Source: Chthonomonadaceae bacterium
GTDB lineage: Bacteria; Armatimonadota; Chthonomonadetes; Chthonomonadales; Chthonomonadaceae
Direction: 5' to 3'
DNA length: 64,000 nucleotides
Assembly (NCBI GenBank): GCA_043762265.1
Contig: JAYUMV010000239.1
Coordinates: 2,142-66,141, forward strand
The translations under genes were made by a program, and so were the position numbers. The notes below the pieces were generated by a model. The model saw nothing but the letters and a program-made list of their open reading frames with translations, searched no databases and was not told where the DNA came from. Below, piece after piece: positions 3,916-21,178 of this stretch (position 1 is the first letter of the stretch; every line of letters begins with the position of its first letter).

Positions 3916-6723
3916 ATGTTGGAAGAACCCTGGCGTGTGACCCTATGCGGCGGCTTATCCGCGCGCCAGGGCGCCCATAGCGTGTCGCGTTTTCGGACGC
4001 AGAAGACGGGACTTTTGCTGGCTTATTTGGCACTACATAGGGAGCGCACGCACGGGCGCGAGGAGTTGGCCGAGCTTTTCTGGCCCGAAAGCGCCGACTC
4101 GCTGCATAGTCTGAGGCTAGGCTTGGCCTCGCTGCGTCAGCAACTGGAGCCGCCGGGAGTGGGCAGGGGGCAGGTGTTGAGAGCGGATCGCAACCATGTC
4201 GGGCTGGTGTCCGGGACCGTGCGTACGGATGTGGCCGACTTTCACGCGGCAGTCGCGGAAGCGGCGCGCACGGTGGAGACGAAGCAGACGACGCAACGGC
4301 TCCGGGACGGCGTGGAGGCCATTTCGGGCGAACTGTTGCCGGGGAGCTATCTGGAGTGGGTGTTGCAGGCGCGTGAGATTCTGTCGGAGCAGTTGCAGAG
4401 CGCGCTCAAGGATCTGGTCGTGTTGCTGATTGCCCAGGAGGAGGCGGAGTCGGCGCTGCCGTTTGCGCTGCGACGGGTGCATCTAAACCCGCTGAACGAG
4501 GAGGCGCATCTGGCGGTGATGCAGTTGCTGCTGCGGTTGGAGCGCCCGGCCGACGTGCCACGGCAGTTCGAGCATCTGCGTGCGCTGTTAAAGGAGATCG
4601 GCATTGCGCCCTCCCTGCAGGCGCAAGAGTTGGCGGATGGCTGCCTCTCGTTTTCGGAGGATCCTGTTGTTTCGGTTCTTAGCTTCGGTGGATTGGGTGC
4701 GCGTCCGGTCGCCTCCCTGGTCGGCCCACTGCCGGCCACTCCCCCGTTCGCCCCTCCGCGTTTCCCTCCCGCGCCCTCCGTTTCAACCCGGCCTGCGGTT
4801 CGTCTGCCTCTGCCTCTTACCTCTTTCTTCGGGCGAGAGACGGAGTTAAGCCAAATACGCGCGTTGCTGGCGCCGCCTTCTGCCGCTAATGCGGATGGCG
4901 AAGAGCTTTTGTCAGGCGCGCAGCTCTGGCGCGCGCGTGTGCTGACCGTGCTTGGAACGGGAGGCTCGGGCAAGACACGACTGGCGATCGAGGTCGCACG
5001 CCTCTGCGCCGCCGACGCCGATAGGACGGTCTGCTTTGTAGAGTTGGTGGATGCGGACACCCCCGAACACATGCTGCAGGCGATTGCGGAGGCGGTCTGC
5101 CCGCATGCACCGGCCGATTGCCTGCCTTTGGAAGGGATTGTGAAGGCCCTTGGAGCAGGAGCGACTCTGTTGATCCTGGATAACATGGAGCAGCTCGTCG
5201 AAGAGGGCACGGAGGTCGTTGGGCGACTGCTGGAGCGGCTGCCGGACCTGACGATCCTGGTGACGAGCCGACTTCGCCTGAGCTTGGCTGGGGAACGCGA
5301 GTTTCCTCTGTTGCCGCTACCCACCCCTGAGCGCGCCGATGCGCCGGAGTGCCTGATGGAGTTTGCGAGCGTGCGGTTATTTGTGGACAGGGCGCAGGCG
5401 GCCCGCGCCGATTTTCAGTTGACCGCGCGGAACGCCGCCGCTGTGGCGGCGTTGTGCCGGCGGCTAGAAGGACTGCCTCTGGCGCTGGAGCTTGCGGCAA
5501 GTTGGGCGCAGACGCTCTCTCCGGCGCAGATGCTGGCGCGTCTGGATCGGCGGTTCGAGATGTTGCGCACGCGGCAGAGAGGCGTGGCCTCGCGGCATCA
5601 GGCGCTCGATGTGTGTATCGACTGGAGTTTTCGCTTATTGGATCCGGAGTTGCAGACTTTTTTCTGCAGGTTATGTCTGCTGCATGGGGAGTGGACCCTG
5701 GAGACGGCGGAGGCCGTCGTCGGGGAGAGAGATATTTTGGAGAAAGTGCAGCGGTTGCGGGATGCCTCTTTGCTGCTGGTGCGCGAGGCGCAAGACGCGG
5801 AGGGAACATCGCTGCGCTTTCACATGCTAGAGTCGTTACGCGAGTTCGGGCTGGAGCGATTGGAGCCGAAGGAGTGGGATACCGGACATGAGCGTCTAAC
5901 GCACTATTTTAGCGCCCTCTCCGGCCCAGACCCTTTTGCGACGGTCGATACCGAAAACGTGCGCGCAGTCGTCTCCTGGTGTCGCACTTCAGCGGTCGGG
6001 TATGCGCTGGAACTGGATCTGCTCAATGCGCTCATGCATTTCTGGGGCAATCGCGGTGGCTGGGTAGAAGGACGGGACTGGTTACAGGCGGCGCTGGAGC
6101 GCCATGCGGGGGAGGCCGTTCTTGCGCAGAGGAAGGCATGGAATACGCTCGGCTTTCTACATGCGATGCTGGGTGACGACGGCCAAGCCCGAGACTGTTT
6201 CGAACGCCTGCTGGCCGATTCGGAACGGGCGGAAGATCCGATGATGGCCGTGCGCGCCCTGAGCAACCTGGCGATTATTGCGATGAGAGCAGAAGACTTT
6301 TCACAGGGATGCGCGCTTATGGAGCAGAGTCTGTCTCAGGCGGAGAGACTCGGGGATGCGCGGATGATTGCCACGCAAAATTACAATTTGGGCGCAGCGT
6401 ACGTGGAACTGGGACACTATGAAGAGGCGCGCCGTTTGCTTGATCGGAGTCTGCTGCAGAGCCGTGAACAGAATTTTGCGGCTGGCGTCGCTCTCTGCCT
6501 CTGCAGCCTTGCTGAGGTGGCGCGAAAAGAGGGAGATAGCCTGGCAGCCCGGCAGATGCTTGAGGATAGTCTGGAGATATTTCGCTCTGTCGGCGAGCAG
6601 CCGCGTATCGCAGAGATGCTCGATCGCCTGGTAAAACTCTTGGAAGCTGAGGGGGATGTGCTCCAGGCACGTCTTTATGCCGAGGAGAGCGCTCTGCTGC
6701 AGACGCAACTGCGGGGTGAATGA
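3916..6723 (+). CDS. SARP/AfsR-like regulator: OmpR-type wHTH + BTAD + NB-ARC ATPase + TPR
   Basis: N-terminus WRVTLCGGLSARQG..VSRFRTQKTGLLLAYLA. BTAD-like helical region. Walker A GTGGSGKTRLAIE. C-terminal TPR units (NLAIIAMRAEDFSQG.., NLGAAYVELGHYEEA..). Confidence 0.9.
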   Translation: MLEEPWRVTLCGGLSARQGAHSVSRFRTQKTGLLLAYLALHRERTHGREELAELFWPESADSLHSLRLGLASLRQQLEPPGVGRGQVLRADRNHVGLVSGTVRTDVADFHAAVAEAARTVETKQTTQRLRDGVEAISGELLPGSYLEWVLQAREILSEQLQSALKDLVVLLIAQEEAESALPFALRRVHLNPLNEEAHLAVMQLLLRLERPADVPRQFEHLRALLKEIGIAPSLQAQELADGCLSFSEDPVVSVLSFGGLGARPVASLVGPLPATPPFAPPRFPPAPSVSTRPAVRLPLPLTSFFGRETELSQIRALLAPPSAANADGEELLSGAQLWRARVLTVLGTGGSGKTRLAIEVARLCAADADRTVCFVELVDADTPEHMLQAIAEAVCPHAPADCLPLEGIVKALGAGATLLILDNMEQLVEEGTEVVGRLLERLPDLTILVTSRLRLSLAGEREFPLLPLPTPERADAPECLMEFASVRLFVDRAQAARADFQLTARNAAAVAALCRRLEGLPLALELAASWAQTLSPAQMLARLDRRFEMLRTRQRGVASRHQALDVCIDWSFRLLDPELQTFFCRLCLLHGEWTLETAEAVVGERDILEKVQRLRDASLLLVREAQDAEGTSLRFHMLESLREFGLERLEPKEWDTGHERLTHYFSALSGPDPFATVDTENVRAVVSWCRTSAVGYALELDLLNALMHFWGNRGGWVEGRDWLQAALERHAGEAVLAQRKAWNTLGFLHAMLGDDGQARDCFERLLADSERAEDPMMAVRALSNLAIIAMRAEDFSQGCALMEQSLSQAERLGDARMIATQNYNLGAAYVELGHYEEARRLLDRSLLQSREQNFAAGVALCLCSLAEVARKEGDSLAARQMLEDSLEIFRSVGEQPRIAEMLDRLVKLLEAEGDVLQARLYAEESALLQTQLRGE

Positions 6724-9880: not shown

Positions 9881-10846
9881 ATGAACCGACGTGAGTTGCT
9901 TTCAACGGCAGCCGGTCTCAGCGCCATGTTCGCCTTCGAAAATCTGCGTACCCGCACTCCGGCGTCCGCCGCTCCCCGCTTCGACGGTTTCGAGCCACAG
10001 ACTCCCGAACCGCTCAGTACCGTAAAACTGACCGATCACCTCTCGGTCGTCATGGGCAACGGGGGAAATATTGCGGTCCTCACCGGGGACGAAGGCACGG
10101 TGCAGGTGGACAGCGGCTATGCGAACCGAGCCACCGATGTCGCCAAAGCGATCGCGGATCTGAGCGCACAACCGGTGACGACGCTGATCAATACGCACTG
10201 GCATCTCGATCATGTCGGCGGCAACGAGGCGGTCGGCAAGGGAGGAGCCCGAATCCTCGCGCAGACGACCACCCGAGCGCGCATGGCGACCGATCAGACC
10301 GTCGAGTTCATGAACATGCACTTGCCGCCCTCTCCTGCCATCGCCCTGCCCGTCATCACCTTTGCGGATAGCCTCACCCTCTATTCCAACGGGGAACAGA
10401 TCACGATGACGCACGTGCCGCCCGCGCACACCGATACGGACATCGTAGTCTATTTTCGCAAAGCGAACGTGCTGCATGCGGGCGATCTGTTGTTCAACGG
10501 CTTCTATCCATTTATCGACTACTCCAGTCGGGGCTGGATCGGGGGAATGGTCGCCGCCGCCGATATCGTGCTGAAGCTCTCGGACGCGAAGACCAAGATC
10601 ATTCCCGGCCACGGCCCGATGGCGACACGCGCCGATGTCGTGGCCTTCCGCACTATGCTGCATACCGTTCAGACACGTATCGAAGCGCTGATGAAGAGCG
10701 GGAAGAGTTTGGAGCAGGTCGTCGGGTCGAAACCAACTCATGATCTCGACGAGAAGTGGGGCCAGGGCTTCCTGAAGCCGGACCAGTTTGCGACGTTGGC
10801 TTACACCGGCATCGTCCGCCATCGTGGTGTCGTCCGTCATGCCTAG
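9881..10846 (+). CDS. MBL-fold metallo-hydrolase with Tat-type signal
   Basis: HWHLDHVGGN (HxHxDH motif). N-terminal MNRRELLSTAAGLSAMFAF. Confidence 0.9.
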   Translation: MNRRELLSTAAGLSAMFAFENLRTRTPASAAPRFDGFEPQTPEPLSTVKLTDHLSVVMGNGGNIAVLTGDEGTVQVDSGYANRATDVAKAIADLSAQPVTTLINTHWHLDHVGGNEAVGKGGARILAQTTTRARMATDQTVEFMNMHLPPSPAIALPVITFADSLTLYSNGEQITMTHVPPAHTDTDIVVYFRKANVLHAGDLLFNGFYPFIDYSSRGWIGGMVAAADIVLKLSDAKTKIIPGHGPMATRADVVAFRTMLHTVQTRIEALMKSGKSLEQVVGSKPTHDLDEKWGQGFLKPDQFATLAYTGIVRHRGVVRHA

Positions 10847-10935
10847 GCGGTGCACCCGAACAGGATCGATGCAAAACTTTGTATGAGAGGCGTTCGGGAG
10901 TCTGCTCAGAAGAGAAAAAGGGAAAGGAGAGCCCT

Positions 10936-11418
10936 ATGGCCGAAATCACGTTGCGGCCGGAAGCGCCGCAGGATAAGGAGTTCTTGTACGCTCTCTACGC
11001 CTCTACGCGTGAGGAAGAGCTCGCGGCGGTACCGTGGGCGGAAGCGCAGAAGGCCGCGTTTCTGCGGATGCAGTTCGCGGCCCAGAGCCATCACTATCAC
11101 GCCTCGTTCACGGAATGCGACTTTCTGGTCGTGCTGGCCGATGGAATTCCGATAGGGCGTCTCTACCTGGACCGAAGAGAGCAGGTATTGCACATCGTAG
11201 ACATCGCGCTCCTGCCACCGTGGCGGGGAAAGGGGATCGGCAGCGCTCTCCTCAGTTCGATTCTTGCCGAGGCCGACCGGGTCGGTAAGGCAGTTTCGCT
11301 CCATGTAGAGAGCTTTAATCGAGCGGCGCGCCTTTATGAACGTCTCGGCTTCGTTCTGGGCAAACAGGAAGGTGTCTATCACTTCATGGAGCGCCCTCCG
11401 CGTACTATTGCTCTCTAA
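10936..11418 (+). CDS. GNAT family N-acetyltransferase
   Basis: LLPPWRGKGIGSALLSSIL..RLYERLGF (acetyl-CoA binding motif A). The ATG at 10936 is preceded by GGAAAGGAGAG. The longer ORF from 10756 overlaps the MBL gene. Confidence 0.85.
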   Translation: MAEITLRPEAPQDKEFLYALYASTREEELAAVPWAEAQKAAFLRMQFAAQSHHYHASFTECDFLVVLADGIPIGRLYLDRREQVLHIVDIALLPPWRGKGIGSALLSSILAEADRVGKAVSLHVESFNRAARLYERLGFVLGKQEGVYHFMERPPRTIAL

Positions 11419-11496
11419 CGCCTGCTAACCGCTGCGTTCCTATAGCGGGAACTTACGCGTTCCAGACGTAGATCGGCATCGCCTCCCCAACAAGAA

Positions 11497-11535
11497 AAAC
11501 GGCGCTGTTCTCAGGATCTGAGATCAGCGCCGTTT
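11497..11535. terminator. Bidirectional terminator hairpin between convergent genes
   Basis: 18-bp stem (1 mismatch) AAACGGCGCTGTTCTCAG-gat-CTGAGATCAGCGCCGTTT, flanked by an A-run and a T-run. Confidence 0.7.
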
Positions 11536-11588
11536 GGCGTGATGCCTTCGGTTCGCGCAGTCTGCCATGTCTCTCGTTTGGCGCCAGA

Positions 11589-12383
11589 TCAGGCGTTGGC
11601 AGCCTTTACCGGCTCCACGGAGAGGACCAGGTAGTGGAAGGGAACCGGGCCGAGGCAGTTCCACAGAGTCCCGCCGGTCAACTTGTCGTCCTCGTATTCC
11701 GGTATGAACCGGTAGTCGTCCCAGTTGGGAAGCGCATGAGACCGGGGGTCGGGAAGGGCGACGAAGTAGACTCCCTGGCGCAGTTTCGGCTGCTTGTTCC
11801 AGGCTGCCGTGCTGAAGCGGCAAACATGCTCGGTGCGTACCGTGCTGTCCTGCGTTTCGCCCGTGCTCTTTTTGGGATAGACGACGGAGAGCGCAAGACC
11901 TTCCGTGCGGCTGACCGGCATGCAGAAACTCACTGGACTGCTGTGGTGGTTCAGCGTGTCTCGCCGGTAGTTCCAGGCGTTGAACTGCACACTGACGCCC
12001 GGCTGCTGAGTCGGGAAATGCGCGAAGAGCGAGAATGCCGAGAGGCTGGGGTCCGGATGTCCGCTTCCCAGGCCGTGTACCGTGAGCCGCACTCCGGTGT
12101 CGGCCAGACTGCGGGCGCCCCACATCAGGCTCGCCGCCGGTTTTACGGTCTCGGTCTGTGCATCCCAGTAGCCGACCGCGTTGGCAGGGATCGGCTGCTC
12201 GGTTTTCGTCTGCTCCGACGCCTGCGCTGGCTGCGAAATCTGAGTAGTTGCGGCTGCCATCAGGCCAGCAGCGGTTCCACCCATCAGAAAGGTGCGGCGG
12301 CTGGGCACGGTGCGCTGTGCGCCGGAAGCTGCCAGGGGGGCCGGAGCCTCGTCATACCGAGCCTGCCTATTTTGAGTTTGCAT
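11589..12383 (-). CDS. Tat-signal secreted protein, function unknown (last gene of the tail-collar operon)
   Basis: Twin-arginine motif SRRTFLMGGTAAGLMAAA..AQA. SD AAGGAGAG. 59 nt downstream of the third collar gene. Confidence 0.75.
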   Translation of the reverse strand: MQTQNRQARYDEAPAPLAASGAQRTVPSRRTFLMGGTAAGLMAAATTQISQPAQASEQTKTEQPIPANAVGYWDAQTETVKPAASLMWGARSLADTGVRLTVHGLGSGHPDPSLSAFSLFAHFPTQQPGVSVQFNAWNYRRDTLNHHSSPVSFCMPVSRTEGLALSVVYPKKSTGETQDSTVRTEHVCRFSTAAWNKQPKLRQGVYFVALPDPRSHALPNWDDYRFIPEYEDDKLTGGTLWNCLGPVPFHYLVLSVEPVKAANA

Positions 12384-12442
12384 CGATACTCTCCTTACGG
12401 GTAACGGCAGGACTGGCTGTCGTTCCGTCGATATGTTTCGTT

Positions 12443-12952
12443 TTACGAGGGATAGACCCCGATGAGGGCTATGATGAAGTTTATCGCTAAATAAGGCCCG
12501 ATATTGGAATGGGCATTGCTGACAGGTGGTGCAGAGATTGCCACAGGCGCCATGGAGACCGTCTGAGGCGCATTCTTATAGGCCGCGCCTGCGTTCGGCG
12601 CTGCCAGGAAATGACCGACAGGCGAACTGGAAGTCGCCGTTCCGGACTTGGCCTGCAGGTCATGGCTATGGACGGGCAGTTGCGCCTCCGTCAGGACCAC
12701 GTTTTCCACTCCCGCCGTGTCGCCCAGATTGTAGGTCGAGAGGCCAGGACCCTGTCCTGCATGGACGGGGACTCGTCCACGCAGATCCGGAAGATTAAAA
12801 GTCGTCGCATCGCCTCCGTAGGTGGTGCCGATTATCGCAAACAAGACCTGGTAGTCGGCTTGACTTAATGCGCTGCCGTCGCATATCGCCCAGCCGCGGG
12901 GCGCGAAGTTGCCCGTAAATATTCGAATCTCACTGATATAGGGTGTTGCCAT
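12443..12952 (-). CDS. Phage-tail-collar-domain protein (MdpB-like), copy 3
   Basis: N-terminus PYISEIRIFTGNFAPRGWAICDGS.LSQADYQVLFAIIGTTYGGD..TFNLPDLRGRVPVH. C-terminus HSNIGPYLAINFIIALIGVYPS. SD AAGGAGG. Confidence 0.85.
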   Translation of the reverse strand: MATPYISEIRIFTGNFAPRGWAICDGSALSQADYQVLFAIIGTTYGGDATTFNLPDLRGRVPVHAGQGPGLSTYNLGDTAGVENVVLTEAQLPVHSHDLQAKSGTATSSSPVGHFLAAPNAGAAYKNAPQTVSMAPVAISAPPVSNAHSNIGPYLAINFIIALIGVYPS

Positions 12953-12963
12953 TTGCGTCCTCC

Positions 12964-13464
12964 TTAATTGCGTGGTGGGAAGATGCCCAATAGGGCGATG
13001 ATAAAGTTAAGGGTCAGGAAGGGTTGACGATTTTCGTGTCCTTGACCCGCCCCGGCGCTCGATACGCTCCCGGACTCCATCAGCGTATCGGCCGTGGAGT
13101 CGTAGAGGGTGCGGCGCGGCGGAGCTGCAAGCAAAGATCCTGCCGGTGACACGGTGTTCGCTGCTGCCGAGGAAGCCATGATCGTATGGCTATGCGTGGG
13201 CATTGTGCTCTCCGTCAGAACGACCGACTCCGCGCCCCCCTGCGTCCCGTAAGGCATGTTAGTGTCGAAATGCATCGGCACGCGGCTGCGCAGATCCGGA
13301 AGCGCGAACGTCTGTCTTCCGTCGCCGCCATAGGTGGTCCCAAGCAGGGAAAACAGAGCCGTATTCTGGCTTATCGAGAGTAACTGACCGTTGCACAGTG
13401 CCCAGTTTTGTGGAATAGTGTTGCCGGAGATCATTTTGATCTCTCCCAAGAATGGTTCTGCCAT
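12964..13464 (-). CDS. Phage-tail-collar-domain protein (MdpB-like), copy 2
   Basis: PFLGEIKMISGNTIPQNWALCNGQLLSISQNTALFSLLGTTYGGDGRQTFALPDLRSRVPMH ... HENRQPFLTLNFIIALLGIFPPR. 11-nt gap to the next gene. Confidence 0.9.
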   Translation of the reverse strand: MAEPFLGEIKMISGNTIPQNWALCNGQLLSISQNTALFSLLGTTYGGDGRQTFALPDLRSRVPMHFDTNMPYGTQGGAESVVLTESTMPTHSHTIMASSAAANTVSPAGSLLAAPPRRTLYDSTADTLMESGSVSSAGAGQGHENRQPFLTLNFIIALLGIFPPRN

Positions 13465-13476
13465 GGTAATCTCCTT

Positions 13477-13998
13477 TTACTGGTGACTCGGGTAGATGCC
13501 GGACGTGCAGATGATGAAATTGAGCGCAAGAAAAGGCGATCTGTTTTCGTGCGCCTGATTGCTCCCTCGTGAAACGAGGCTGTTTGCATTCATCGCGACG
13601 AGATTGGTTGGCGAGTGGTAGATATTGCCCAGGCTGCTATTCGCTTGACTCAAAGCCATCGTCGTCGGATTCGCCTGGTTCGCGGCATTGGGAGCCGCCA
13701 TCAGTGTGTGCGTGTGTGCGGCCTGGTCCGCTGTCAGAGCGACTCCTGCCTGCCCGTCTGCTTCGCCCAGAGTGTACGCAGTCAGTCCTGTGCCAGCTCC
13801 GCATTGGAGGGGAACTCGCTCGCGCAAATCCGGTAGGGCGAAAGTGTTAATACCGTTTCCGCCGTAGGCGGTGCCCAGAATGCTGTACAGGCTGGCGTAG
13901 GTAGTCGTACTGAGAAGCTGACCGTTGCAGAAGGTCCAGCCTCTAGGCTCAAAGTTAAAGGGTACGAGTCTGATTTCGCCGATAAATGCTTCTGACAT
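13477..13998 (-). CDS. Phage-tail-collar-domain protein (MdpB-like), copy 1
   Basis: AFIGEIRLVPFNFEPRGWTFCNGQLLSTTTYASLYSILGTAYGGNGINTFALPDLRERVPLQ ... HENRSPFLALNFIICTSGIYPS. 12-nt gap to the next gene. Confidence 0.9.
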   Translation of the reverse strand: MSEAFIGEIRLVPFNFEPRGWTFCNGQLLSTTTYASLYSILGTAYGGNGINTFALPDLRERVPLQCGAGTGLTAYTLGEADGQAGVALTADQAAHTHTLMAAPNAANQANPTTMALSQANSSLGNIYHSPTNLVAMNANSLVSRGSNQAHENRSPFLALNFIICTSGIYPSHQ

Positions 13999-14030
13999 TG
14001 TGCTTTCCTTTCGGTTGGTGAGGCAGCGTC

Positions 14031-14828
14031 TTAGCTGCGTTTTTTCATTTTGCGTTTGAGGAGCAGGCTGCCGATACCGGCCCCGAATAAGAGCGCTACG
14101 GAACCCGGCTCGGGCACATCCGGCGTCCCGCCACCTGCGTCCGGGCCGATATGGACATTGTCTACTAGGATCGCTGAGGAGATACTGTTGTCATCGACGT
14201 TGACTGCACCGAAGCCCAGGGTATAGTTGCCGGTCGTCGGCAGCGTGATGGTTTGCGTGGAAAAGCCGGTGTGCTTATCGTACGGCGCATCGAGGCCACC
14301 CGCGACGGAACTGAGCGAACTGTTGGTGTCGGCCAGTTTGAAGGCGATGCCATTCAAGGTGTAGAAGCCGAAATCGTTGTTGATAGGCGCGGTGGTTTCG
14401 CTGGTGGCGAAATCCCAGGCAAACGATAGTTGCTCGCCTGCATTGCCGTGGAAGGTCTGCTTGAAGGCCGAACCTTCGATGGCGGTGCCCGGATTGGCAA
14501 TCGTATTCAGCGCGCCATTAGACAGCCCTAGAAATGTCTCAAGGCTGCCAGCAGCAACGGGGTTCGGCGTAACGCCTCCGAAGTGATCAGTGCCTGCAAG
14601 CGCCAGAGAGGTTCCTTGCGTGGGAGCGATCTGGAAACTGCCGTAGTAACCGTCGGTGGTCGGATTGGCTGTGAACTGCTCTACCGCTGTGAACCCACTT
14701 GAAATCCAAATCGTAAGATCACCGGTCTCGAAGCCGCCGTTGGCAACCTGAGCCTGGGCTGTGCCTGAAGCGAGCAGGGTGCAGAGGCCGAAGAGACCCG
14801 CGCCAACGATTTTGTGATGTAAAGTCAT
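14031..14828 (-). CDS. Secreted PEP-CTERM protein (first gene of the tail-collar operon)
   Basis: Signal peptide ..LLASGTAQA. C-terminal VPEPGSVALLFGAGIGSLLLKRKMKKRS. 32 nt upstream of collar copy 1. Confidence 0.85.
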   Translation of the reverse strand: MTLHHKIVGAGLFGLCTLLASGTAQAQVANGGFETGDLTIWISSGFTAVEQFTANPTTDGYYGSFQIAPTQGTSLALAGTDHFGGVTPNPVAAGSLETFLGLSNGALNTIANPGTAIEGSAFKQTFHGNAGEQLSFAWDFATSETTAPINNDFGFYTLNGIAFKLADTNSSLSSVAGGLDAPYDKHTGFSTQTITLPTTGNYTLGFGAVNVDDNSISSAILVDNVHIGPDAGGGTPDVPEPGSVALLFGAGIGSLLLKRKMKKRS

Positions 14829-14952
14829 ATTGATTGACCTTTCTTCCCGTTCGCCGTGAGGAGTGCTGGGCGAAACAAAGGCGATTTTGAGAAACCGAAT
14901 GTGAATGGGGATCGCTACCGGGATAGGAAACTCTCTCCTTCGTTCTATTATC

Positions 14953-14995
14953 AGTATAGGGCCACCAGCGCCATTAATCTGTGACCCGCATCACA
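14953..14995 (-). promoter_or_regulatory. Putative promoter (TATACT) with a perfect CRP/FNR-type palindrome TGTGA-N6-TCACA centred about -41.5
   Basis: TGTGACCCGCATCACA at 14980-14995, then a 21-nt spacer, then minus-strand TATACT at 14958-14953. No -35 hexamer. About 125 nt upstream of the ATG at 14828. Confidence 0.5.
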
Positions 14996-15046
14996 CTCGT
15001 TTCGTGCGTTCCGCACAAAGCTCTCACCTCTACGGGACAAGCGAAA

Positions 15047-15075
15047 GCCCGCCTCTCGGAAGTCGAGAGGCGGGC
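15047..15075 (-). terminator. Terminator hairpin downstream of the beta-propeller/phosphoesterase gene
   Basis: 12-bp perfect stem GCCCGCCTCTCG/CGAGAGGCGGGC. On the minus strand it is followed by TTTCGCTTG (weak U-tract). Confidence 0.55.
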
Positions 15076-15151
15076 CGGTTTTGAGATTAAAATCCCGTTT
15101 TAGAGCGGCAATTCATGGCCGAAAAAAGCTTTTCGGACGACGTAGGACTGC

Positions 15152-17779
15152 TTAACGAGAGGCGGTGGCCGGTGGGTAGGAGGCGTCGCCGTGGGTGTGG
15201 TGCCAGAGCGCTTCGGTCAACAACTCGGGATCGGCGCGGTCCGGAGCCGAGAAGTCGAGGAGCGCGGAGACGGCGGCCCAATGGCGCGGTGTGCCCGCCA
15301 GTTTCTTGAGCGGAGGGTTGATCAGGTTGAGGGCGATTATGTTCTTGTGCGCTGTATAGGGCTGATAGTCGGCTTTTTCCTGGAAGACACTGCGCATCGG
15401 GATCGCCGCTGCATCGAACTGGTTGAGCGGAGGAATGTTGAGGATCTGCTCGATGGTGCGAATCATGTTCAACTGATTGAAGTTGGCGCTGAAGATCTGG
15501 CCGCGCTTGTTGAACGGACTGACGATCAGAGCTACCGTACGATGGCCCTCTACATGGTCGAGGCCGCCCTGCGCATCGTCTTCCACCACGAACACCACAG
15601 TCGGCTCATCGTGCCAGTATTTCTGGCTGTGTGAAAGGGTATCGATCAGTTTGCCGACGGCGAGATCGTTGTCGGCAATGTCCGATTCGGGCGTATAGCT
15701 GCCGGGTCGGGTGCCCGAGGTGTGGTCGTTCCCGAACCAGATGGTCGTCAGATCCGCGAGCGGTTTCCCGCTGTCGAGGTCTTTCACGATCCGCTCATAG
15801 TGCGCTACATCGGCATTTCGGTCCGCAGTGACCGGAACCTCTTTGTCGTAGTCCGTGTCGGAGTGGGGCTTGATGCTTGGCAGCGGGTCGAACTCGCCGT
15901 AGTTGTGGAACGAATGTCCGTTGTCCATCGCGGCCTGCCAGAGGAACTTATTGCCCGCATAGACCAGAGGATCTGTGCCGCAGCAGGGATAGGAGCGCGG
16001 ATAGTTGTTCATCGCCCGCTCGGAATAGTCGTCGGCGAACGCCTCGTTGAGCCAGTGGTGCCCGTCGGCGCTGATGGCGCCGCTGCAGTAGAAGTTGTCG
16101 AACAGGCCGAACTCGCGGGCGAGCGCATGGTGGTTGGGCGTGATCTTCTCCCCGAACATCAGCAGACTGGGGTCGCCGCCGATATGCCCGGCAGGCACCG
16201 CAACGTCCGCAAAAAGCTGGTCGTAGGTGCGGTTCTCTTTAATGACCAGGACGACATGCTTAAACCTCGACCAGAAGGCGTCGCGCTTGCCGCTCAAAGC
16301 CTCGGCCATCCGATCAAAATGATCGTAGCGATTCACGGTCGTCGTCAACTGTGCCAGCGCCGTCCTGTCGGGGATGGGAATCACGCCCAGACTGCCGAGC
16401 ACCGAATAGACACTGTGGCCGGTCAGACTGTCGGATTGTATCGCCCCGCCAGGGCCTGCCTTCGGCGTCGCGGCTCCCTCCCCACGCGGGCGAGTGACCG
16501 TAGCGCCGAGCGAGCCGATGCCCTTACTGTTCGCGACATAGAGGCTGGCGCCGTCCGGGCTCAGGAGAACGCCGAGCGGAAACCAGGCCGTCGGGATCAG
16601 CCCCACGATTTTCGTCGCGAGCGCCTTACCGCCAGCGGTGGCGTCCAGAGCGAACACGGCCACGGCGTTGTCGCCGCCCAAAGTGACGTAGAGGGCGCTG
16701 CCATCCTGGCTGACGGCGATCCCGTTCGGACTGCTGGCCGCGAGTTTGCCGGGGGCGGGACTGGTAGCGATGGTCTCCACCACCGTATCGCTGCCGATGC
16801 CGATCACCGAAATAGTGTCGTTGTTCGCATTGGCGACGAAGAGACGACTGCCATCCGGTGAGAACGTCATATCGGTCGGCTGCAGGCCGACCGGGATCGT
16901 TTTGGAGACGGCATGTTCGGCATCGGCGGCGATCTGCGCGGTGGCGATTACGGAGACCGTGCCTGTCGAAGCCTTGTAGGATTTGGGATCGACCACTACC
17001 GGATCGTCTTCATCCAGCGTGTCCCCTGCTTCCGGCGTTTTGCCGCCCCGGTTGGCGACATAGATCTTGCCGCCGTCCTGACTCACGACGACTCGTTCCG
17101 GCGAACTGCCCACAGGAACTTCGGTATAGGTCGCGCGGCCGGTCTCCGCCTCATACGTGGAGAGATCGACGGCAGCGAGAGTCCCGTTGTTGAAAAGCGT
17201 CACGTACAGGGTCTTCTCATCGGGAGAGAGCGCCAGTCCGCAGGGCTGCGAGTCCTTTGCATTCTTGTTCGGCTCTATACGCGACTTCAAAGCGAGGCCT
17301 ATCGGCTTGGACGCTGTGGCTTTGCCGCTCGCATCGAAATGCGTCACGAACACGACCCCGGCAGCATCTGCCGTGCCGCCCTGCGGCGCCGCCTGCGCTT
17401 TCCCGGTGGTGTAGAGCGTCCGTCCGTCCTTCGACCAGGCGATTCCGCCTAAGTTGTGGGAGCCCGGGACGAGATCCGGCAGAAACTGCTGGGTCTGGGT
17501 GTCGAACAGACGCGTCCCTCGCTGACACATCAGCGCCAGTATTTTGCCGTCGGGCCGCAGCGCCATATCGATGGGCCGCCCCTCGAAGGAAATATTTTTG
17601 CCAGCGGGACTGAGCGTCTGCCCGGTTGGGACGAAGTAGGTGCCATCGGTCTGCTTGCCGATCGTGGACATATCGGGTGATTTTGCTGCGGGCTTCGCCG
17701 CCAGACGTATTCCGCCATAGAGCAGACCGGCAGCCGGAAGCAGCAACATAAGATGACGAGTAGTGCGCGAAAGAGGCAT
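15152..17779 (-). CDS. Fusion protein: YncE/YVTN-type beta-propeller + phosphoesterase (PlcC/AcpA) family domain
   Basis: N-terminal half has repeated ..SPDG..LYV(A/T)N.. propeller blades. C-terminal half starts HVVLVIKENRTYDQLFAD (the ENRSFD-like signature of the phosphoesterase family). N-terminal signal/anchor. Confidence 0.85.
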   Translation of the reverse strand: MPLSRTTRHLMLLLPAAGLLYGGIRLAAKPAAKSPDMSTIGKQTDGTYFVPTGQTLSPAGKNISFEGRPIDMALRPDGKILALMCQRGTRLFDTQTQQFLPDLVPGSHNLGGIAWSKDGRTLYTTGKAQAAPQGGTADAAGVVFVTHFDASGKATASKPIGLALKSRIEPNKNAKDSQPCGLALSPDEKTLYVTLFNNGTLAAVDLSTYEAETGRATYTEVPVGSSPERVVVSQDGGKIYVANRGGKTPEAGDTLDEDDPVVVDPKSYKASTGTVSVIATAQIAADAEHAVSKTIPVGLQPTDMTFSPDGSRLFVANANNDTISVIGIGSDTVVETIATSPAPGKLAASSPNGIAVSQDGSALYVTLGGDNAVAVFALDATAGGKALATKIVGLIPTAWFPLGVLLSPDGASLYVANSKGIGSLGATVTRPRGEGAATPKAGPGGAIQSDSLTGHSVYSVLGSLGVIPIPDRTALAQLTTTVNRYDHFDRMAEALSGKRDAFWSRFKHVVLVIKENRTYDQLFADVAVPAGHIGGDPSLLMFGEKITPNHHALAREFGLFDNFYCSGAISADGHHWLNEAFADDYSERAMNNYPRSYPCCGTDPLVYAGNKFLWQAAMDNGHSFHNYGEFDPLPSIKPHSDTDYDKEVPVTADRNADVAHYERIVKDLDSGKPLADLTTIWFGNDHTSGTRPGSYTPESDIADNDLAVGKLIDTLSHSQKYWHDEPTVVFVVEDDAQGGLDHVEGHRTVALIVSPFNKRGQIFSANFNQLNMIRTIEQILNIPPLNQFDAAAIPMRSVFQEKADYQPYTAHKNIIALNLINPPLKKLAGTPRHWAAVSALLDFSAPDRADPELLTEALWHHTHGDASYPPATASR

Positions 17780-17887: not shown

Positions 17888-20800
17888 ATGCAGAGGCACA
17901 ACCCCGTGGCTTGTGAGGGCTCTCAGGTTAGAACAGCAGGATTTGAGGGTGGCAGAGTCGCAATGAGAGGAGCGAATCATTATCCCCACGGAGCCGCGAA
18001 CACATTGGACACAGGGCAACAGACAGAAGTCATATGGCGGATCGAACTCCTGGGAGGCGTGTCTCTTTCACGTGGGGGGGAACAACGTCCTCCCTTTAAA
18101 ACGCGCCGTATGACACGCCTGTTGGCGCGTCTCGCCTGTTTTCCGGACAGGGCGCATGCCCGTGACATCCTGGCAGAAGAGTTGTGGCCGGAAGAGGACC
18201 CGGAAGCGATTCGGGAGCGGTTTCGGCAGACCCTGGCGCTATTGCGGCGCGAGTTGGAGCCTGCGGACGTTTCGGCCGGAAGCGTTCTGATTGCGGACCG
18301 CTCCACGGTGCGTTTAGCTCCTCGATCCTTCACCACCGATATTGCGGATTTTACCGCAGCGCTCCGCATGGCCGCCACCGAGACCGATCTTGTTCGGCAG
18401 ATCGCGCCATTGCGGCAAGCGGTCACGCTCTATCGCGGCGATCTAATGCCGGGGTTCGATGAAGACTGGATACAGACCGAGCGCCTGCATCTGGCGGAAC
18501 GCTCCCGGCAGGCGCTGGTCCGCCTGACCATGCTGCTCGCCTCGGGAGGGCAATGGGAAGAGGCCATCGAAACGGCGCGTCGGACCATCACCGCCGATCC
18601 CCTGCATGAGGAGGCGCACTGCATGCTGATCCGCCTCTTCGCGCAGTCGGGGCGTATGGCGGATGCGCACCGGCAGTACGAAGCGTTGGAACGGCTCCTG
18701 AAGGAGCAGATGAACCTGGAACCCGCTGCGGCAACGCAGGATCTCATGCGGGAGTTGCGCAGCGGACTCACGTTGGCCTCTTTGCTTTCGGTCTCCCCGC
18801 AACCTCCAGTCGTCGTAGCCCCGCTGGAACCGACTCTTCCAGCACAGACTGTCGCTCCTCCCACAGCCGTCCTGCCACATCCGATGACACGTTTCTACGG
18901 TCGTGAGGCGGAAATAGAACAACTGACAGCGCTGCTCTCACCTCAAGGTGTCCCCTCCAACGCGCCGCCGCCGCTCGTCACTTTGACTGGGCAGGGGGGA
19001 GCCGGGAAGACGCGTCTCGCGCTGGAGGTCGCCCGGCGACTGGCCCCGTCCTACGCGCAGGCGGTCTGGTTTGTGCCGCTTGCCGATGTCCTCTCCCCCG
19101 AACGTATAGGGGATGCGGTCTGTGAGACGCTGGAACTAGCGCGTTCCGGACAGTCCGATCCGATCCAACAGGCCATCGCGTTTCTGCGTGGATATCCGAA
19201 CGCGCTTTTGATCTTCGACAATTTCGAACATCTCCAGGAGGAGGGAACGCCGGTGCTGCAGGCGCTGCGTCACCGGCTGCCGCACCTCGCCTGTCTGGTC
19301 ACCTCGCGCCATAAACTCAATCTGGACGGGGAGCGCGATCTGACTCTCTCTCCACTCGCCACTCCGGAGGGGGAGCAGAGCAGCGAACAGTTGCAGAGTT
19401 ATCCGAGTGTGCAGCTTTTCCTGGACCGTGCGCAGGCCGCACGCTACTCTTTCGCCCTGACGCCAGCGAATGCAGATGCCATTGCGACGCTGGTGCAGCA
19501 GCTCGAAGGGCTTCCACTGGCGATCGAACTGGCGGCAGCCTGGGCCGCGACACTCACGCCGGAACAGATCCTGCTGCGTCTGTCGCATCGCTTTGAACTT
19601 CTCGTCAGTCGGCGTAGAGACGCTCCGCAGCGGCATCGCAGTCTGCAAGCGGTGCTGGAAGGCAGCGTTCAACTGTTGCCCCCCTGGCTGCAGAAGCTCT
19701 ATGCGCAACTCTCTGTCTTTCGCGGGGGATGGACTCTGGAAGCGGTAGAACAGGTGGCGCGGGTGCCCACGACGACCAGCGTCGGAACTCTGCACTATAT
19801 GGAAGGGCTGGCGCTGCTTCAGGAGCGCTCCTTCGTGCACTCGGAGGAGGCGGACGCGGAGATGCGCTACTCGCTTCTGGAATCCTTGCGAAAGTTCGGC
19901 GCGGAGCAGTTGACCGCAGAAGAGCAACGGAGTCTGGCGCAGCGGCATGCCGCTTTCTATCTTGTGCTGGCAACGGAGGCCCAGGCACATCTGCGCACAC
20001 CGGCAGAAAAACAGTGGTTCGACCGCCTGGAGCTAGAGAACGAGAACTTGCGTGCGGCTCTGGGGTGGGCGCTCGCAAACGAGCCGGATACCGCCTTGCA
20101 GATGACGGCGCGTCTTCCTCACTTCTGGATGACGCGTGGTTTTGCGCGGGAGGGCAGCGATTGGCTGCATCGGGCGCTGCGGTGTCCCGCAGAAGTCTCG
20201 ACGGTACGCGCGGAAGCGCTCAATGGGTTGGCGCTGATGAAGTTCTCCCTGAGCGAGTACGATGCCGGTAAGGCGTGGGCGCTGGAGAGCCTGAAGGCGC
20301 GGCGAGAGTTGGAGGATCCGCAGGGAACCGCGAAGACCCTCAACACCCTGGGAGCGATTTTGATGGAACAGGGCGACTATCGTGAAGCGCAGACCTGCTA
20401 TGAGGAGTGCCTCGGTCTGCACCGCCTGACCGGCCATCGCATGGGCGAATCGATCGTGCTGGCCAACCTGGGCAATCTGGTCTATGGCCAGGGAGAGTAC
20501 GCCATGGCCTGCAACTACTACGAGGCGTGCCTGGAAGCACGACGCGCGCTGGGCGATCGGCGTGGGATCGCGGCGGCCCTCGACTACATGGCGCGGGCCG
20601 TGCGAGAGCAAGGCGACTACGGGAGGGCCTGCGATCTGCATGCCGAGAGTCTGGACATGCGGCGCGAACTCAACGACAAACAGAGCGTGGCCCTTTCGTT
20701 GAATCATATGGCCTTCGCGAAAATCCTGATGGGAGAAAAGGTTGTGGCCCGCACTCTGCTGGAAGAGAGCCTGGTCTACTCTCGGGAGATCGGGGATAAA

Positions 20801-21178
20801 GCAGGAGTCGCGGAAGCGTTCTCTCTTTTAGGAGAACTGGCACGTCAGGACAATGCCGGAACGAGTCCCCGGGGGTACTGGTCGGAGAGCCTGACGATCT
20901 GGCAGGAGATGGGAGATAGAGCCAGCACGGTCGCCCTCCTGGAATCCTTTGCAGGACTGGTGCATTCCGAAGGCCAAAGCGATGCGGCAGCGCAACTGCT
21001 CGGCTTTGCCGAGGCCCTGCGCACCGAAATCTTCTCTCCCCTGCGACCCTCCAGCCTCCCTCGCTACGCACAGACCCTGGATGCTGTCCGTGCCGCCCTG
21101 GGGTCCGAAGCGTTCGAGGCTGCTTGGACCGTAGGGCGCTCTCTTACCCTTGAACAGGCGATTCGCCTGGTTCTCTAA
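17888..21178 (+). CDS. SARP/AfsR-like regulator: wHTH + BTAD + NB-ARC + long TPR array
   Basis: VIWRIELLGGVSLSRGG..FKTRRMTRLLARLA. Walker A GQGGAGKTRLALE. About 8 TPR units at the C-terminus. The true start is probably downstream (ATG 17963 or TTG 18005), because the paralogues start about 5 aa before the WR(I/V) motif. Confidence 0.9.
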   Translation: MQRHNPVACEGSQVRTAGFEGGRVAMRGANHYPHGAANTLDTGQQTEVIWRIELLGGVSLSRGGEQRPPFKTRRMTRLLARLACFPDRAHARDILAEELWPEEDPEAIRERFRQTLALLRRELEPADVSAGSVLIADRSTVRLAPRSFTTDIADFTAALRMAATETDLVRQIAPLRQAVTLYRGDLMPGFDEDWIQTERLHLAERSRQALVRLTMLLASGGQWEEAIETARRTITADPLHEEAHCMLIRLFAQSGRMADAHRQYEALERLLKEQMNLEPAAATQDLMRELRSGLTLASLLSVSPQPPVVVAPLEPTLPAQTVAPPTAVLPHPMTRFYGREAEIEQLTALLSPQGVPSNAPPPLVTLTGQGGAGKTRLALEVARRLAPSYAQAVWFVPLADVLSPERIGDAVCETLELARSGQSDPIQQAIAFLRGYPNALLIFDNFEHLQEEGTPVLQALRHRLPHLACLVTSRHKLNLDGERDLTLSPLATPEGEQSSEQLQSYPSVQLFLDRAQAARYSFALTPANADAIATLVQQLEGLPLAIELAAAWAATLTPEQILLRLSHRFELLVSRRRDAPQRHRSLQAVLEGSVQLLPPWLQKLYAQLSVFRGGWTLEAVEQVARVPTTTSVGTLHYMEGLALLQERSFVHSEEADAEMRYSLLESLRKFGAEQLTAEEQRSLAQRHAAFYLVLATEAQAHLRTPAEKQWFDRLELENENLRAALGWALANEPDTALQMTARLPHFWMTRGFAREGSDWLHRALRCPAEVSTVRAEALNGLALMKFSLSEYDAGKAWALESLKARRELEDPQGTAKTLNTLGAILMEQGDYREAQTCYEECLGLHRLTGHRMGESIVLANLGNLVYGQGEYAMACNYYEACLEARRALGDRRGIAAALDYMARAVREQGDYGRACDLHAESLDMRRELNDKQSVALSLNHMAFAKILMGEKVVARTLLEESLVYSREIGDKAGVAEAFSLLGELARQDNAGTSPRGYWSESLTIWQEMGDRASTVALLESFAGLVHSEGQSDAAAQLLGFAEALRTEIFSPLRPSSLPRYAQTLDAVRAALGSEAFEAAWTVGRSLTLEQAIRLVL

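Follow-up and report, generated by a model that had tools for sequence, protein, structure and literature searches.

A Chthonomonadaceae operon of three tail-collar genes with exported neighbours: a candidate version of a widespread cellular cassette

Results

Genes at the locus

A 64-kb stretch of DNA from contig JAYUMV010000239.1 of a Chthonomonadaceae bacterium (hereafter the window, whose full length sets all coordinates given here) carries an operon in which three tandem genes for proteins of the phage tail-collar family PF07484 lie between a gene for a PEP-CTERM surface protein and a gene for a protein with a twin-arginine translocation (Tat) signal. All operon genes are on the minus strand (Table 1). 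An earlier note, made from the letters of the DNA, had described five genes on one strand with gaps of 32, 12, 11 and 59 nucleotides (nt) and a Shine-Dalgarno sequence for each. The list of open reading frames (ORFs) agrees with this layout, and an AAGGAG-like Shine-Dalgarno element is found 5′ of each start. The five operon genes thus stand as described, but the set was incomplete: a convergent GNAT N-acetyltransferase gene, the most widely conserved partner of the collar genes, had been overlooked.

Table 1. Genes and candidate regulatory features of the collar operon, with positions in the window.
Feature	Position	Strand	Description
PEP-CTERM surface protein	14031-14828	-	265 amino acids (aa)
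Collar protein 1 (c1)	13477-13998	-	173 aa; PF07484; HxH is HTH
Collar protein 2 (c2)	12964-13464	-	166 aa; PF07484; class-specific 5-residue deletion after the collar
Collar protein 3 (c3)	12443-12952	-	169 aa; PF07484
Tat-signal protein	11589-12383	-	264 aa; SRRTFL and hydrophobic region (h-region); no Pfam family
Cassette-type GNAT N-acetyltransferase	10936-11418	+	160 aa; convergent with the operon
TGTGA-N6-TCACA palindrome (CRP/FNR-type)	14980-14995	-	upstream of the operon; putative regulatory role
TATACT, candidate -10 hexamer	14953-14958	-	TA(T/C)AC(T/C) kept in four relatives
Terminator-like hairpin closing the phosphoesterase gene	~15041-15076		TATACT lies downstream of the hairpin
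Long hairpin CGGCGCTGtTCTCAG-ga-TCTGAGAtCAGCGCCG	11495-11537		flanked by A5 and T3; read directly

The ten flanking ORFs were searched with Pfam. They encode STAND/BTAD regulators, a DUF885 protein, a metallo-beta-lactamase-fold protein and a propeller-phosphoesterase, with zero phage structural or integrase genes, in agreement with the previous claim that phage genes are missing within ±10 kb. All five operon genes are under purifying selection in comparison with three relatives (ratio of nonsynonymous to synonymous substitution rates, dN/dS, 0.1-0.4, dS being near saturation). The nearest named homologues are from Chthonomonadaceae, Armatimonadota, and the window sequence was found solely in DNA runs, from rock and sediment metagenomes. 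Searches of the six proteins against the PADLOC defence models gave no significant match (the Tat-signal protein had two chance-level matches to Cas8), and membership in a defence system was rejected on this ground.

Sequence and fold of the collar proteins

The assignment of the three collar proteins to PF07484 held on searching Pfam, with E values of 8e-26 to 6e-28 and scores of 90-97 bits against a cut-off of 24. The shared N-terminal block and the C-terminal NFII block noticed before are present in all three, and the alignment adds an invariant HxH motif; pairwise identity among the three proteins is 42-45%. Each begins directly at the collar domain and hence lacks a signal peptide, as noted before. 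Most homologues are alike in this respect: 208 of 225 homologous collar genes start at domain position 1, and these 208 products therefore have no signal peptide. At position 2, 198 of the 208 proteins have Ser (133) or Ala (65), and M1, P4 and E8 are nearly invariant. H95, H97 and H150 are invariant in 81 aligned sequences and are kept in all the position classes described below.

A profile of these 81 sequences gave matches to T4 gp12 and, via the HxH motif, to the long tail fibre of cyanophage A-1(L) (8KEC; E 7e-9). In a model of the monomer, the predicted local distance difference test score (pLDDT) is above 90 in the collar and 54-70 in the head; the low values of the modelled head would be as expected for an intertwined oligomer. 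The best folds in the PDB for the collar model are 1OCY (the gp12 receptor-binding domain), 8KEC and 5IV5. As in tips of the gp12/gp37 type, the collar strands are split by an inserted head that bears the HxH motif, whose role in metal binding is a prediction. These fold and profile matches identify each collar protein as a shaft-less fibre tip, and at ~170 aa without a shaft the product is therefore a knob and not a fibre. The head diverges faster than the collar, with orthologue identities of 0.50 and 0.62, respectively, among close relatives.

Occurrence of collar triplets across bacteria

To define the distribution of the collar genes, one genome per species was scanned with a pattern. More than 577 stretches encode a relative, and the best 80 loci were kept; together with the window they make up 81 loci, which were analysed with our own ORF calls and a hidden Markov model (HMM) built from the window's three collars. 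Relatives of these collars are over-represented in the sample. The loci come from Pseudomonadota, Acidobacteriota, Chloroflexota, Planctomycetota, Bacteroidota, Actinomycetota, Myxococcota, Bacillota and other phyla. At 63 of the 81, the collar genes are arranged in tandem as threes or multiples of three, with exactly three at 59 loci, two triplets (3+3) at three, and eight genes cut by the contig end at one. Single collar genes are found at eleven loci, two separate single genes at one, and pairs at six, three of which lie at contig ends. Longer arrays, with three triplets in succession (eight or nine tandem collar genes), are found at L028:1690-6641, in a metagenome-assembled genome (MAG) of Acidobacteria, and at L101:1-5456, on a contig recorded as viral. 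The same gene order is seen in RefSeq plasmid and chromid records, with the collar proteins labelled 'tail fiber protein'.

That label, together with the use of PF07484 mostly as a tail-fibre domain of phages and the existence of full-length homologues that are minor tail proteins of Microbacterium and Arthrobacter phages, would fit an operon left behind by a prophage or a tailocin fibre module. Such an origin as a remnant appears extremely improbable in view of the absence of phage genes around the operon, the purifying selection on its genes, its conservation with a conserved promoter of its own, and the presence of the same cassette with cellular partners in many phyla. Virion, baseplate and integrase genes were not found at the relatives' loci either. 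Among 2.9 million viral contigs, triplets were present in only about a dozen of the 79 loci retrieved; three viral triplet loci have a GNAT gene, and most viral matches are single fibre genes.

Position classes within the triplet

The relationship between the position of a collar gene and its ancestry was assessed on a tree of 208 proteins. Position labels required 25 changes on this tree, compared with ~105 after shuffling (0 of 200 shuffles were as low). With class HMMs under five-fold cross-validation, 52 of 65 triplets gave the order A-B-C. Within Chthonomonadaceae, c1, c2 and c3 each form a clade (support 87, 99 and 93) with class-specific indels. No single alignment column reaches 70% as a marker of each of the three classes; a strong class bias is seen at several columns, among them position 35 (Q / D,E / T). 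By these sequence measures, the three gene positions are ancient orthologous classes in a fixed order across phyla. In the tree, the c1 clade is sister to canonical class 1, c3 groups with class 2, and c2 is unresolved. The layout of the window, with three consecutive co-oriented PF07484 genes of ~170-180 aa and positional orthology, is that of the virophage DSLV2, which is considered below.

The earlier note had proposed a heterotrimeric fibre. Of this, the heterotrimer is favoured by the ancient position classes and, by analogy, by the DSLV2 precedent, while the fibre has to give way to the shaft-less knob. A different assembly, in which the triplet would be three lectins forming three separate homotrimeric knobs with different ligand specificities, is unlikely in our estimate. 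It is consistent with the homotrimeric state of phage gp12 and gp37 (structures 1OCY and 2XGF), with the eleven single-collar loci, often carrying the same GNAT, and with the retention of the HxH motif and the collar residues in all three classes. The fixed order with one of each class across phyla is nevertheless explained more easily by obligate co-assembly, the gaps of 11-12 nt suggest coupled, equimolar expression, and in DSLV2 it was the heterotrimer that co-purified (PMC12724248).

The Tat-signal protein and its family

The protein encoded downstream of the triplet carries SRRTFLMGGTAAGLMAAA, a twin-arginine motif followed by a hydrophobic region. Its N-terminus SRRTFLMGGTAAGLMAAATTQISQPAQA has the elements of a Tat substrate (S/T-R-R-x-F-L, hydrophobic region and cleavage site), from which export is predicted; the Pfam TAT_signal model scores 14.1, below its cut-off of 22.7. 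The mature protein is predicted to be an all-beta sandwich. No Pfam family matched it and no PDB match was significant, the best Foldseek hit (E 0.01) being a weak C2-like beta-sandwich resemblance. Homology to DUF6916, another family with Tat-signal members at collar loci, was considered and rejected, as hhalign aligns the signal peptide only (probability 24-30%).

A profile search of 1.84 billion representatives recovered 516 clusters (50% identity) at E <=1e-3. The twin arginines and an h-region are present in 136 of 146 representatives examined. Members of the family (window 11589-12383 and P0012-P0157) are ~250-290 aa long, with (S/I)(V/I)GYW after the signal and a PKLR.G.YF motif, and are a candidate for a new family definition. 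Distant members lie beside collar genes in all seven cases with readable context, four of which were picked blind from the family list: L078, L013, L095, L096, L098, L097 and L099. The gene content at L095 is a giant cadherin, three collars, the Tat-family protein, a beta-helix protein, a GNAT and DUF6916, and at L096 it is DUF6916, three collars and the Tat-family protein. L097 and L099 are short contigs on which the cut upstream ORF is a collar gene; the downstream ORF of L097 is the start of a cassette GNAT. At L098, a PrmA/PRMT5-like methyltransferase gene (4597-5508) lies between DUF6916 and the Tat-family gene, and a fourth, partial collar ORF (110 aa) is seen upstream of the triplet. 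Among the 81 collar loci only 3 carry this Tat family; as an alternative to the Tat-DUF6916 partner it is therefore the less common one.

The PEP-CTERM protein and other upstream surface genes

The product of the first gene (14031-14828) has a signal peptide and an N-terminal jelly-roll-type domain with the motif NGGFE...W. Its C-terminus VPEPGSVALLFGAGIGSLLLKRKMKKRS is a sorting signal made up of VPEPGS, a transmembrane segment and KRK; this end scores 21.4 with TIGR02595 (cut-off 16) and 17.3 with Pfam PF07589, under the cut-off of 20.7. The protein is 65-77% identical in three relatives and is always encoded directly upstream of the triplet. At 27 loci the gene upstream of the triplet encodes a giant cadherin/Big_9/tandem-95 surface protein; in the window this surface slot is filled by the 265-aa PEP-CTERM protein instead. 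PEP-CTERM proteins of ~205 aa are encoded upstream of the triplet in Massilia (L018, L075), a Burkholderiaceae MAG (L066) and Inhella (L040), and those of Massilia share the NG.FE...W ... DNV...PEP design of the window's protein. Analogous operons of PEP-CTERM, triplet and Tat-signal protein are found in Betaproteobacteria.

Conservation of the five-gene unit in relatives

Conservation of the triplet and its flanking genes as a unit, on which the earlier note had made its proposal depend, was borne out: the unit is intact in at least three relatives, in one of them with different flanks. The full five-gene unit is present at L081/82, L091/92 and L085/86, where the Tat-signal protein is 71%, 64% and 46% identical to that of the window, and the flanks of L085/86 are entirely different. 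On two short contigs the collar genes immediately precede the Tat gene (L093, 62% identity, with the convergent GNAT present; L094, 59%). At the syntenic sites of L083 and L089/90 the PEP-CTERM, collar and GNAT genes are missing and the Tat gene is kept (57% and 56%). In these (L083:8001-8804 and L089:3972-4730), the h-region of the Tat signal carries Asp/Glu (RRRTSLTDGTDAGPV...), which suggests that the signal may have decayed after loss of the collar genes. L083 and L089/90 are closely related, and collar loss and the h-region change therefore count as one evolutionary event.

Some features of the surroundings are also shared. The propeller-phosphoesterase gene (15152-17779) and the divergent BTAD/STAND/TPR regulator gene (17888-21178) adjoin the operon in L081/82; in L083 and L089 they lie next to the Tat-family gene, and the L085 unit is located elsewhere. 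In L083 and L089 an apiosidase gene is next after the Tat-family gene.

Persistence of the Tat gene at two syntenic sites without collars, and the low count of its family in the 81-locus sample, could mean that the PEP-CTERM and Tat genes are mere syntenic neighbours with no functional link to the triplet. This is very improbable: the unit is intact in a different neighbourhood (L085/86), the Tat family was found beside collars in seven of seven distant members, and PEP-CTERM proteins independently precede the triplet in Betaproteobacteria.

GNAT and DUF6916 partners of the triplet

The cassette GNAT belongs to PF00583 (E 1e-14), and the window's protein scores 205 bits with an HMM built from collar-flanking GNATs of other phyla. 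Its motif is LYASTREEE...W...QK..FL.MQF. When neighbouring genes were clustered, a GNAT was found within 4 kb of the collars at 64 of the 81 loci, usually directly downstream and on the same strand. In the window the gene is convergent, 1025 nt past the third collar gene and 170 nt past the Tat stop codon. The ORF called mechanically for it (10756-11418) starts at a GTG overlapping the metallo-beta-lactamase-fold gene; the conserved start of the family is the ATG at 10936 (MAEITLRPEAPQDKEFLYALYASTREEE). The nearest curated models are RimI-like, weakly. After removal of Met, the Ser or Ala at position 2 of the collar chains would present the kind of N-terminus that RimI/J/L-like N-alpha-acetyltransferases classically modify, and a dedicated GNAT is encoded nearby.

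Genes of DUF6916 (PF21880) are present at 57 of the 81 loci, often twice. One copy is signal-less and ~97-106 aa long, and a copy with a twin-arginine signal occurs at 20 loci or more. No DUF6916 match was obtained among ORFs of at least 60 aa in the 64 kb of the window, and no mention of DUF6916 was found in the papers searched. On a plasmid of Comamonas antarctica (L087, 6627-12519) the cassette converges on a ~11.8-kb gene for a 'YDG domain-containing protein' (~3,900 aa), and its order, DUF6916, DUF6916, GNAT, triplet, is the reverse of the usual one.

These partners bear on the place where the collar proteins act. The chains could stay in the cytoplasm, for example as chaperone-like or modifying factors for the exported proteins encoded next to them or as sensors, with the Tat-signal neighbours as clients or as unrelated co-regulated genes and not as carriers. 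The missing collar signal peptides, the many cassettes in which DUF6916 is signal-less only, and a cytoplasmic GNAT as the most constant partner are compatible with such a role, which we regard as improbable all the same: the chains have the fold of a receptor-binding tip that works outside the cell, the great majority of their neighbours are surface or exported proteins, and the head diversifies faster than the collar, as exposed ligand-binding surfaces tend to do.

Promoter and transcript ends

A simple promoter scan of the minus strand detected no sigma-70 consensus promoter, and the promoter is proposed here on the basis of a phylogenetic footprint of the upstream regions of four relatives. 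In the aligned regions of four Chthonomonadaceae, the GTGA...TCACA core of the CRP/FNR-type palindrome is invariant. Together with the conserved candidate -10 hexamer, this supports the view that the operon would be transcribed independently and under regulation. A second inverted repeat, GTGCGGAACGCAC, kept in three of the four upstream regions, is located at 15004-15016 (-), ~10 nt further upstream than the palindrome. At the other end, the hairpin at 11495-11537 is a candidate bidirectional terminator that may be common to the operon and the convergent GNAT gene; it was unreported by a simple terminator scan and was found on direct reading.

Comparison with known collar proteins and export systems

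The closest parallel to the triplet is virophage DSLV2, of the Aquatic Virophage 1 lineage (J Virol 2025), in which three consecutive PF07484 proteins co-purify as a 1:1:1 heterotrimer that binds LPS and Synechococcus cells (PMC12724248). Compared by description, not by sequence, the two have in common a consecutive co-oriented PF07484 trio of similar size (the DSLV2 heterotrimer is 58 kDa), positional conservation across relatives, and a collar with a variable head. The DSLV2 genes are virion genes beside capsid genes, whereas viral context is missing from the window, the cassette lies on chromosomes in many phyla of bacteria, and its partners here are the PEP-CTERM protein, the GNAT and the protein with the Tat signal.

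The phage tips T4 gp12 (1OCY, 5IV5) and gp37 (2XGF) and the A-1(L) fibre (8KEC) resemble the window collars in the head inserted between collar strands, and the HxH motif of the window collars aligns with that of 8KEC. However, phage tips are homotrimers on long shafts in a virion, whereas the window proteins are stand-alone, 170-aa cellular products of three paralogous classes with a single HxH each.

Non-phage collar proteins of unknown function have been described before, namely RhiB (rhiABC) and MrpB/MdpB (COG4675) (PMC13133039, PMC6969944, PMC3328848); MrpC of Microcystis is an extracellular CT pilin (PMC12397347). In both systems, as in the window, the neighbours of a non-phage PF07484 gene encode exported or surface proteins, among them RhiC with its signal peptide (Mrp was compared by description only). 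RhiB of Rhizobium pRL10 is encoded by a single collar gene, is 45 aa longer at its N-terminus, and is only remotely related to the triplet proteins (E 4e-12 with the triplet HMM). RhiA and RhiC of pRL10 gave no match to the collar, DUF6916, Tat-family or GNAT profiles, and being unrelated to the window's proteins they led us to reject rhiABC as a model of the whole operon.

For export, the analogy is with Tat hitchhiking, by which a signal-less subunit leaves the cytoplasm with a partner bearing a Tat signal, as in the large and small subunits of hydrogenases or DmsB and DmsA. The window, too, encodes signal-less chains, predicted to form an oligomer with a metal, beside a twin-arginine partner; the likeness is purely one of analogy.

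Discussion

Taken together, the gene content, the fold resemblance and the conservation of the unit lead us to read the operon, with a probability of roughly 55%, as the Chthonomonadaceae (Armatimonadota) version of a widespread cellular, non-viral cassette for a heterotrimeric, metal-centred knob that acts at the envelope with exported partners. The three chains would fold and assemble in the cytoplasm as a single 1:1:1 heterotrimeric knob of the gp12/gp37 type, in which six His from the HxH motifs may hold a metal ion on the threefold axis. Ligand binding, most likely of a glycan or an envelope polymer, would fall to the variable head. At the cell envelope, the knob would act with the PEP-CTERM-anchored jelly-roll protein and the Tat-exported beta-sandwich protein. 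Since the collars have no signal peptide and a Tat-signal partner is encoded beside them, the folded knob may be carried across the membrane by that partner as a hitchhiker. The nearly invariant Ser/Ala N-termini of the collar chains are possible acetylation targets of the cassette GNAT.

Several observations weigh against this proposal. The class HMMs order c1-c2-c3 of the window as C-A-B, with margins of 2-13 bits, and these small-margin assignments disagree with those of the tree. Eleven of the 81 loci have a single collar gene, and homotrimers must therefore also work in the collar family. In Chthonomonadaceae, the GNAT gene adjoins the operon at only two of six loci. As L083 and L089/90 retain the Tat gene in the absence of collar genes, the Tat protein is not strictly dependent on them. 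Of the 57 loci with DUF6916, 37 have signal-less copies only, and 24 of the 81 loci have no DUF6916 gene within ±7 kb; Tat hitchhiking is therefore not a universal export route, or the partner is encoded elsewhere. MrpA and RhiA, products of the other non-phage collar systems, are reportedly abundant cellular proteins.

Extended to the many phyla in which the cassette is found, the same elements would describe a domesticated phage fibre tip turned into a surface-recognition device, a lectin-like heterotrimeric knob around a metal: acetylated by the GNAT, carried in folded form through the Tat system by a dedicated partner (a DUF6916-Tat protein or a member of the unnamed family), and docked on a PEP-CTERM protein or a giant adhesin, where it would mediate cell-cell or cell-polymer recognition. 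This wider picture is offered tentatively, as a possibility with the odds against it.

Although non-phage collar proteins (RhiB, MrpB, COG4675) were recognised decades ago, no function has been assigned to them, and the RefSeq label 'tail fiber protein' misleads prophage prediction. The cassette is widespread but functionally unstudied. A fixed unit of three paralogues, with a dedicated GNAT and Tat-signal partners beside surface proteins, turns it into a concrete, testable system. To this the window adds a variant from Armatimonadota in which the anchor is a PEP-CTERM protein, the Tat partner is not of the DUF6916 family and the GNAT gene is convergent, as well as a second Tat-partner family that is large (the 516 clusters), unnamed and without a Pfam model. 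If the proposal is true, the cassette would be a new kind of bacterial module for surface recognition or adhesion and possibly a new case of Tat co-export. Should the heterotrimer and the export route hold, a phage receptor-binding architecture would be tied to cellular envelope biology, and several domains of unknown function would gain a function.

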